DNA of 64,000 nt, from contig JANQOX010000026.1 in assembly GCA_028285625.1 (NCBI GenBank), positions 17,825-81,824 of the forward strand. The letters run 5' to 3'. This document shows positions 46,534 through 46,965 of the stretch, piece by piece. The translations under genes were made by a program, and so were the position numbers. This stretch comes from Myxococcota bacterium (GTDB lineage Bacteria; Myxococcota_A; UBA9160; UBA6930). The notes under the pieces were generated by a model, which worked only from the letters and a program-made list of their open reading frames with translations, was not told where the DNA came from and did not search any database. Numbering within the stretch: position 1 is the first letter of the stretch; each line of letters starts with the position of its first letter.

Positions 46534-46965
46534 GTGGCCATTCGCGAAGGCGACTCTGCCCCGCAGTCCAGCTTGCTCGCGCCCTGGCTGGGGACGCGCA
46601 CCCTGGTGCTCTACTTCTATCCGAAGGACTTCACCCCGGGTTGAACGGTGGAGGCGCGTGACTTCCGGGACCAGTACTCGGAGTTCACCGCGCTCGACGC
46701 CGAGGTCGTCGGCGTCAGCCCCGATAGCGATGAGCGACACGCTTCGTTCCGGGACAAGCTCGACCTGCCGTTCCCGCTGGTCGCCGATGCGGGCTCGAAG
46801 CTCGCCAAGGCGTTCGGCGTGGCCCGCCTCGGAGGCCTGCTCCCGTCGCAGCGCGTGACGTTCGTGATCGACGCCGAGGGCATCGTGCGCAGCGTGATCT
46901 CGGCCGAACTCGACGTATCGAAGCACGCACGAGGCGCGCTCGACGCCATTCGAGCCCTGGGCTGA
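46534..46965 (+). CDS. peroxiredoxin, Bcp/PrxQ-like, predicted selenoprotein (Sec encoded by TGA 46642-46644)
   Basis: GTG 46534 follows GGAGGA (46521-46526). The single frame reads ...LVLYFYPKDFTPG-TGA-TVEARDFRDQYSEF...GVSPDSDERHASFRDKLDLPFPLVAD...RVTFVIDAEGIV... The TGA replaces the peroxidatic Cys of the PKDxTPGCTxEA motif. The ORF track lists only 46648..46965. Confidence 0.75.
46653..46694 (+). promoter_or_regulatory. candidate bacterial SECIS hairpin
   Basis: Begins 8 nt after TGA 46642-46644. The lower stem pairs 46653-46659 with 46687-46694 (one bulge). The upper stem pairs 46660-46669 with 46777-46786 offset corrected as 46677-46686 (one mismatch, G-U pairs). The apical loop is ACCAGUA. 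Folded by eye only. Confidence 0.5.

Follow-up and report, generated by a model that had tools for sequence, protein, structure and literature searches.

Bacterial peroxiredoxins (Prx) in which selenocysteine (Sec) takes the place of the catalytic cysteine have been catalogued since 2005 as the Sec-peroxiredoxin family (motif TxxU; PF00578/COG1225), in which a bacterial selenocysteine insertion sequence (SECIS) hairpin lies directly 3' of the UGA codon and Cys-containing homologues exist (PMC1088965, PMC1794560, PMC13188914). These proteins are plentiful in marine metagenomes and in deltaproteobacteria (PMC1088965 Tables 1-3; PMC1794560 Tables 1 and 3; PMC13188914). Zhang et al. (2006) reported 12 Sec-peroxiredoxins in complete genomes and inferred five Cys-to-Sec events (PMC1794560), and three Sec-peroxiredoxins are listed for the myxobacterium Anaeromyxobacter dehalogenans (PMC1794560, Table 3). 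For one protein, PrxU of Eubacterium acidaminophilum, the Sec-peroxiredoxin was shown experimentally (Sohling et al. 2001, as cited in PMC13188914). Here we describe a gene, named gene 1, which is interrupted by an in-frame TGA and lies in a 64,000-nucleotide stretch of DNA (hereafter the window) from a Myxococcota bacterium (GenBank assembly GCA_028285625.1, contig JANQOX010000026.1). We consider it highly probable that gene 1 encodes one 143-residue Bcp/PrxQ-type peroxiredoxin with selenocysteine as the peroxidatic residue.

Compared with the Sec-Prx family described by Zhang, Gladyshev and colleagues, gene 1 shows no categorical difference, since the AhpC/TSA fold, the predicted Sec in the motif PxxxTxxU and the SECIS-like hairpin are the same; COG1225 we take to be the COG of the Bcp-type peroxiredoxins. 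What sets the window copy apart from the family is a unique deletion of 9 residues in its N-terminal part. Like PrxU (NF040737), the gene 1 product is predicted to use Sec as its peroxidatic residue, but PrxU belongs to another Prx subfamily: the gene 1 product reached 48.3 bits against a PrxU cutoff of 270 bits, scored higher on the PrxQ and Bcp models, and has 143 residues against about 233 positions in the PrxU profile. The best matches, which are also of the same length class, are the Cys-type Bcp/PrxQ proteins (the E. coli Bcp model NF006960, Bcp1 of S. solfataricus, 3DRN, and a peroxiredoxin of M. tuberculosis, 5EPF). They share PxxxTxxC/U and the active-site Arg with gene 1, which differs from them by Sec for Cys at the peroxidatic position (CP), by Arg for the resolving Cys at CP+5 (CTxEAC) and by having no Cys anywhere. 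The Prx-like thiol:disulfide oxidoreductase selenoproteins (UxxC) likewise combine an AhpC/TSA-related fold with an in-frame UGA, but their motif is a thioredoxin-like UxxC and not TxxU, and their identity to gene 1 is about 42% over 50 residues. A search of the available literature on Myxococcota selenoproteins and on Sec in PrxQ found nothing more specific. Gene 1 is a new member of this known selenoprotein family, in which it forms a small Cys-free clade (UTxEAR) with its orthologues; the members of the clade may already be among the catalogued Sec-Prx sequences. The finding opens no new question, as Sec-peroxiredoxins have been catalogued since 2001-2005.

Reading frame and family of gene 1

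The frame of gene 1 begins with GTG at 46534, reads VAIREGDSAPQSSLLAPWLGTRTLVLYFYPKDFTPG up to the TGA at 46642-46644, continues with TVEARDFRDQYSEFTALDAEVVGVS... and ends at the stop codon TGA at 46963-46965. The mechanical list of open reading frames (ORFs) contains only its 3' fragment of 105 aa, at 46648-46965. With Cys written in for the TGA codon, the product matched the Pfam family AhpC-TSA (PF00578) with E = 7.8e-31 and 107 bits, far above the cutoff of 26 bits, and its best NCBIfam matches were PrxQ (83.6 bits) and Bcp (81.9 bits). As both scores are under the curated equivalog cutoffs (84 versus 260 bits for PrxQ and 82 versus 140 bits for Bcp), the product is, by these profile scores, a relative within the Bcp/PrxQ subfamily and not an equivalog. 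The top matches in PDB were 3DRN (Bcp1, 1.1e-30) and 5EPF. The active-site Arg, R107, lies on the strand RxTF(V/I)ID and is invariant in 41 aligned Sec and Cys homologues. The coordinates of all features are collected in Table 1.

Conservation of the TGA codon and coding constraint

Relatives of gene 1 were searched for in a database of 5.8 billion proteins. The closest ones, with 67-72% identity, were without exception truncated calls of some 105 aa whose first residues are V/MEARDFR, just past the TGA; the full-length Cys-containing homologues had at most 60% identity. Orthologous DNA was obtained from 8 species-representative genomes, which are all Myxococcota/"Deltaproteobacteria" metagenome-assembled genomes (MAGs) and include one closed 5.8-Mb chromosome (OZ245002.1, with orthologue L010), from 11 metagenome contigs and from one NCBI MAG contig. 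Every fetched orthologue reads in frame as ...[FY]TPG-TGA-T[VLIR]EA[RQ]DFR..., and the N-terminal part, some 44 codons long, is conserved as well. All 20 distinct sequences (the window and 19 others) carry TGA at the corresponding codon. The Thr, Pro and Gly codons preceding it are represented by 4, 4 and 2 synonymous codon types, respectively; the TGA never varies. In 102 full-length homologues a Cys is aligned with the TGA column.

The ratio of nonsynonymous to synonymous substitution rates (dN/dS) among the Sec forms of gene 1 was 0.31 upstream of the TGA and 0.27 downstream of it outside the hairpin described below. The two halves are thus under similar purifying selection, which indicates that both evolve as protein, as would be the case if they belonged to one read-through polypeptide. 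The 17 full-length Sec forms made up a monophyletic group that excluded every Cys form in a neighbour-joining tree (midpoint root, without bootstrap), with a 2-Cys Bcp group carrying the motif CTKEAC as its sister.

One base change (TGC/TGT to TGA) would be enough for a sequencing or assembly error, or for a recent nonsense mutation in one genome, to produce such an in-frame TGA. This explanation is contradicted by the separately produced Logan assembly of SRR20820731 (locus L001), which is 100% identical to window positions 42691-47455 with the TGA included, so that the TGA is not peculiar to one assembly, and by the same TGA in the 19 other distinct sequences, which come from different samples and species; we regard its probability as negligible. 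Judged by these comparisons, the TGA in gene 1 is a conserved feature and not a lesion.

An earlier note, prepared from the letters of this DNA alone, had placed the TGA at the peroxidatic-Cys codon of a Bcp/PrxQ-type peroxiredoxin, had seen conservation continuing on both sides of it, had pointed out that the ORF track reports the downstream fragment only, and had proposed an alignment with Cys-containing orthologues as a check. The frame, the dN/dS values of the two halves, the 105-aa ORF and the Cys residues that fall on the TGA codon bear out these points, and the note's statement that Sec-Prx are an established bacterial class agrees with the literature cited above.

The main value of the finding lies in annotation. 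In every genome or metagenome examined, the gene is either called in two pieces, of 36-44 aa and about 105 aa, or represented by the catalytically headless 3' fragment alone; therefore, the selenium dependence and the peroxide-defence capacity of these Myxococcota are under-reported.

A SECIS-like hairpin downstream of the TGA

An RNAalifold consensus of the 75 nt from the UGA onward revealed a hairpin of 15 consensus base pairs, which begins 8 nt past the UGA and has its apical loop 25 nt past it. The window sequence folds with a minimum free energy (MFE) of -31.9 kcal/mol over 69 nt (z -1.94). Standard pairs fill 99.3% of the pair cells of the hairpin; with the 3' arm displaced by 1-3 columns the figure drops to 20-59%. 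Compensatory double changes turn G-C into A-U in two cases, and G-C/G-U switches occur several times. All 20 Sec forms have this hairpin as their MFE fold, with z from -2.0 to -4.0 (mean -3.1), whereas four Cys forms, which include three nearest relatives of high GC content chosen as controls, share no common hairpin in the corresponding stretch (mean z +0.3, n=4).

The region of the hairpin is also constrained at synonymous sites. In codons of conserved residues the synonymous pairwise diversity was 0.165 within +2..+23 versus 0.481 elsewhere (Mann-Whitney p = 4e-7), i.e. about 3-fold suppressed, and dS over the hairpin was 0.29 versus 1.06-1.09 in the flanks (about 3.7-fold lower). Gene 1 therefore offers a clean, internally controlled case of what would be a coding-region SECIS constraining synonymous sites.

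The published model of the bacterial SECIS (bSECIS) describes an apical loop of 3-9 nt, an upper stem of 4-16 bp, a distance of 16-37 nt from the UGA to the loop and an MFE <= -7.5 kcal/mol (PMC13188914, Fig. 2). With a loop of 7 nt, an upper stem of 7 bp, a spacing of 25 nt and a hairpin MFE of -21.6 kcal/mol, the window hairpin falls within all these ranges; the hairpin MFE in the gene 1 orthologues is from -20 to -28 kcal/mol. The earlier note had proposed a hairpin starting 8 nt past the TGA, with SECIS-like geometry, and had predicted a selenoprotein. The consensus structure, the published ranges and the restriction of the hairpin to Sec forms agree with the former, and the testable sequence-level predictions that follow from the latter all held, including the conserved TGA in the 8 species-representative genomes and the presence of a second Sec-Prx gene (see below).

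Directly 3' of the SECIS-like element a second small hairpin was predicted, which is nearly invariant in all 20 gene 1 orthologues. Since it overlaps the invariant stretch coding for GAEVVGV, RNA and protein constraint are inseparable there, and its conservation may stem from the protein.

If the UGA were a real stop, the products of the locus would be a small peptide from the N-terminal part, a C-terminal fragment of 105 aa with its own start, or both, i.e. a split or truncated, catalytically dead Prx fold. This would suit the gene callers, which annotate the split form in every genome, and the GTG or ATG found two codons past the TGA in most orthologues; however, no ribosome binding site (RBS) is evident within the invariant sequence TPG-UGA-ACN. 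Moreover, the supposed stop is exactly on the catalytic codon. It is TGA in 20 of 20 clade-1 and 5 of 5 clade-2 sequences and in no case TAG or TAA, although TAG is at least as common a stop as TGA among the 27 confident window ORFs (16 versus 11). Purifying selection acts on the upstream piece just as it does on the downstream piece, and simple termination leaves the conserved hairpin and the suppressed dS 3' of the UGA unexplained. We consider genuine termination at this codon very unlikely.

Evidence against selenocysteine incorporation and the state of the window copy

Several observations weigh against the reading of gene 1 as a selenoprotein gene. True covariation in the hairpin is thin, as the 2 double changes were matched by 63 of 500 shuffles, and for this reason we do not rest the SECIS claim on covariation. 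No matching SECIS model was found in Rfam, either at the gathering threshold over the whole window or at permissive E-values in both TGA regions; bacterial SECIS elements are not usefully covered by Rfam. According to the bSECIS model, a G is required at loop position 1 or 2; 16 of the 20 orthologues have it, but it is missing from the window loop ACCAGUA, where a G is obtained only if the closing G-C pair opens to give the 9-nt loop GACCAGUAC; some genuine bSECIS elements fall outside the model (PMC13188914). The window copy alone is without 9 N-terminal residues, which read FEAxIQDGS in the 16 other full-length orthologues. Finally, tblastn with E. coli SelA, SelB and SelD gave no match in the 64-kb window and all fetched loci, and ARAGORN detected no tRNA-Sec in the window and the fetched flanks, so that Sec decoding in this genome is something we infer.

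The gap of the window copy lies between SAPQ and SSLLAPW and leaves the protein a net 8 residues shorter than all 16 other full-length orthologues, and the shortening by about 8 residues that had been raised beforehand as a caveat is thus real. The missing residues map to residues 11-19 of 3DRN, a segment which we take to be the N-terminal beta-hairpin of the Prx fold.

The deletion, seen in one of 17 full-length orthologues, and the loss of the G at loop positions 1-2 could mean that the Sec clade is genuine while the window copy itself is decaying or non-functional, with poor folding or poor recoding as the result. Its hairpin is among the weakest of the Sec forms (z -2.3), and odd substitutions occur at near-invariant sites (ALDAEV for ALGAEV, GGLLPS for GGWLPS). 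However, three further orthologues (L006, L017 and L018) are also without the loop G, and the architecture of the window hairpin is that of the orthologues. In the window copy the frame is unbroken, RBS and start codon are good, none of the catalytic residues (P30, T34, U37 and R107) is lost, and the dN/dS of the lineage versus the others (0.36 upstream and 0.33 downstream of the TGA) is not elevated but near the clade medians (0.31 and 0.27). We consider it clearly more likely that the window copy is functional than that it is decaying, and regard decay as improbable.

Probable selenocysteine decoding and a second peroxiredoxin gene with an in-frame TGA

TGA serves as an ordinary stop in this DNA, as it ends at least 11 of 27 confident window ORFs, gene 1 included, which speaks against a genome-wide reassignment. 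The window was scanned by GC content at third codon positions (GC3) for in-frame TGAs with coding signal on both sides. Five sites were obtained, and 2 of them are peroxiredoxin active sites. The three others, at 61247, 2609 and 47947, are on the minus strand; they were discarded because each has the look of an antisense-frame artefact or of the true end of a gene.

The second active site belongs to a gene 11.7 kb downstream of gene 1, named gene 2, which is predicted to encode another Sec-type peroxiredoxin. Its N-terminus resembles a signal peptide (MRTLALAAVLFLAAPALGAG). The product matched Pfam AhpC-TSA with 2.9e-31, its nearest NCBIfam model is Bcp, and its close full-length relatives carry Cys at the TGA position. 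The SECIS-like hairpin of gene 2 has a 5-nt loop, CGUGA (58420-58424), situated 21 nt past the UGA; in 4 orthologues the stem is the same apart from one G-C to G-U change. In the first full-length search the TGA of gene 2 appeared isolated among Cys forms; a search with the C-terminal part, which returned dozens of truncated relatives, showed this to be an artefact of score ranking. The database contains only the 88-aa 3' fragment of gene 2. When this fragment was used to search for other contigs encoding gene 2, no record was obtained, and the support for its TGA therefore comes from the orthologues.

Without Sec insertion by the host, it is difficult to account for two genes within 64 kb that each have an independently conserved UGA at a Cys site, and on this ground the organism very probably decodes Sec. 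A non-Sec route, i.e. genome-wide reassignment of UGA to Trp or Gly, near-cognate reading or Cys insertion, would agree with the lack of Sec machinery in the window. Reassignment is contradicted by the many ORFs that end in TGA, gene 1 itself among them. In addition, only 2 of the 5 in-frame TGAs with two-sided coding signal look real, and both fall on the catalytic Cys position, where Trp or Gly would abolish catalysis. A non-Sec route is hence a most improbable explanation.

Two candidates for further selenoproteins were rejected. A 105-aa "GSHPx" call near the gene 2 orthologue in locus L035 is only a C-terminal remnant with no in-frame TGA junction, and a 703-aa molybdopterin oxidoreductase of the window, considered as FdhA, is an intact ORF with 205 bits versus a 666-bit cutoff and does not bear on the reading of gene 1. 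The latter (39929-42037, plus strand) has an N-terminal Fe4S4 domain, Fdh-alpha as its best NCBIfam match and no in-frame TGA.

Other AhpC/TSA-related sequences were noticed among the fetched loci. L024 (Ga0066671_10059299) has at about 283-573 a more distant AhpC/TSA homologue of 34% identity in which the peroxidatic codon is likewise an in-frame TGA (AFYPKAFTSG*GTEFSRYRE); it is probably another independent Sec-Prx lineage. Prx-like genes of the UxxC type are present in L026 (about 653-820, FF*PVC) and L027 (about 2983-3150, FF*PFC). A short 132-aa AhpC-TSA/Redoxin-like call is located in L030 (8427-8825, minus strand), 2 kb from the gene 2 orthologue.

Predicted mechanism

According to the established bacterial pathway, the hairpin at 46653-46694 would recruit SelB-GTP-Sec-tRNA(Sec) at the UGA (46642-46644), and Sec would be inserted there in place of termination by release factor 2 (RF2). 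Peroxide reduction would then proceed through formation of a selenenic acid at U37, a residue that would owe its activation to three conserved residues, Pro30, Thr34 and Arg107.

None of the 17 full-length Sec forms, window copy included, contains a cysteine. The position of the resolving Cys (CP+5; CxxxxC) is occupied by Arg in 16 of them and by Gln in one (UTVEAR in the window), and the gene 1 Sec clade accordingly lacks the resolving Cys at CP+5 by which atypical 2-Cys peroxiredoxins are recognized. Arg at CP+5 is also present in 11 Cys-form relatives, so this variant was already known within the Bcp/PrxQ subfamily. From the lack of any Cys we infer a 1-Sec enzyme: in the manner of 1-Cys peroxiredoxins, a thiol reductant from outside, such as thioredoxin, glutaredoxin or a low-molecular-weight thiol, would recycle the selenenic acid directly. 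The clade would be an example of a Cys-to-Sec switch accompanied by loss of the resolving cysteine.

It is tempting to go further and to picture the Myxococcota clade as an obligately "1-Sec", Cys-free Bcp, in which the gain of Sec went together with the loss of the resolving Cys (compare the sister motif CTKEAC) and with a distinct recycling chemistry, a direct selenenylsulfide with the external reductant. The window copy, without the N-terminal beta-hairpin segment, would then be a naturally minimised peroxiredoxin fold. Together with an exported gene 2 product, this would give a myxobacterium of high GC content, which is probably aerobic or facultative, a peroxide defence based on selenium and specific to its lineage, both in the cytoplasm and in the periplasm. 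This wider proposal is speculative, and we think it rather doubtful.

Table 1. Positions of the features of gene 1 and gene 2 in the window
Feature	Position	Strand	Details and basis
Gene 1, predicted Sec-type Bcp/PrxQ peroxiredoxin coding sequence	46534-46965	+	143 codons including UGA-Sec; translation, Pfam, NCBIfam and PDB matches
Shine-Dalgarno-like GGAGGA	46521-46526	+	7 nt before the GTG start of gene 1; read from sequence
In-frame UGA of gene 1, predicted Sec codon at the peroxidatic position	46642-46644	+	TGA in 20/20 distinct orthologues; Cys in nearest full-length homologues
Active-site motif P30-K-D-F-T34-P-G-U37 (PxxxTxxU)	46621-46644	+	Sequence; Sec-Prx motif definition from PMC13188914
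Codon of conserved active-site Arg R107 (in QRVTFVID)	46852-46854	+	Invariant column, 41 aligned Sec and Cys homologues
Junction of 9-codon in-frame deletion, between 46566 and 46567	46564-46569	+	Protein and codon alignment, 17 full-length Sec forms
SECIS-like hairpin of gene 1, 15 consensus bp	46653-46694	+	Alignment columns 12-28 with 36-53; RNAalifold consensus
Upper stem (7 bp) and apical loop ACCAGUA (7 nt)	46663-46669/46677-46683 (stem); 46670-46676 (loop)	+	RNAalifold
Second small hairpin, 7 bp, loop GUCGU	46697-46715	+	Columns 56-62 with 68-74; RNAalifold; directly 3' of the SECIS-like element
Gene 2, predicted second Sec-type peroxiredoxin	58207-58731	+	174 codons, stop TAG 58729-58731; GC3 scan, translation, Pfam, NCBIfam
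In-frame UGA of gene 2, peroxidatic position (FPKAFTPG-U-TAE)	58396-58398	+	TGA also in L030, L031, L033 and L035
SECIS-like hairpin of gene 2, stem GGCGCUG/CAGCGCC	58413-58431	+	Perfect 7 bp; folds; kept in 4 orthologues

Genomic context and other observations

Gene 1 is preceded by a short-chain dehydrogenase gene (45759-46514, plus strand) and followed by a convergent amidohydrolase gene (46973 to about 48004, minus strand). Farther upstream there is a 6-phosphofructo-2-kinase/histidine phosphatase gene and farther downstream a second amidohydrolase-family gene, which from its ORF translation is taken to be dihydroorotase-like. In the orthologous locus L002 the Sec-Prx gene starts within the end of a methyltransferase gene and is followed by an SRP54-family (FtsY/Ffh-type) gene. 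As the neighbours of the orthologue differ from those in the window, there is no conserved operon or synteny. The overlap was observed in MAG OFTM245 (L002/L005, 9863-9866), where the start of the Sec-Prx gene and the stop of the upstream methyltransferase gene share ATGA; this suggests co-transcription there.

Gene 2 is divergent from a gene for a quinohaemoprotein dehydrogenase dependent on pyrroloquinoline quinone (PQQ). In L035 (2313-10970) its orthologue is found amid oxidative-stress genes, namely a catalase-peroxidase-type gene (PF00141), an Fe/Mn superoxide dismutase, a SOUL haem-binding protein and the 105-aa glutathione-peroxidase remnant.

In the window, the stops of 27 crude high-confidence ORFs, a rough selection that includes at least one over-extended ORF (56050-58758), are TAG in 16, TGA in 11 and TAA in 0 cases, which is unusual for a genome with 71% GC. 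ARAGORN reported a tRNA-Glu(CUC) at 36836-36908; the tRNA model of Rfam gave no match there even at E <= 1, and the site is inside a long high-GC3 ORF (35596-37314), so that the call is probably a false positive. Two very large ORFs stand in tandem at 25061-34996 (plus strand), the first of 1554 aa (adenylate/guanylate cyclase plus AAA_16) and the second of 1681 aa; similar cyclase-TPR (tetratricopeptide repeat) genes flank the gene 2 orthologues in L031 and L033.

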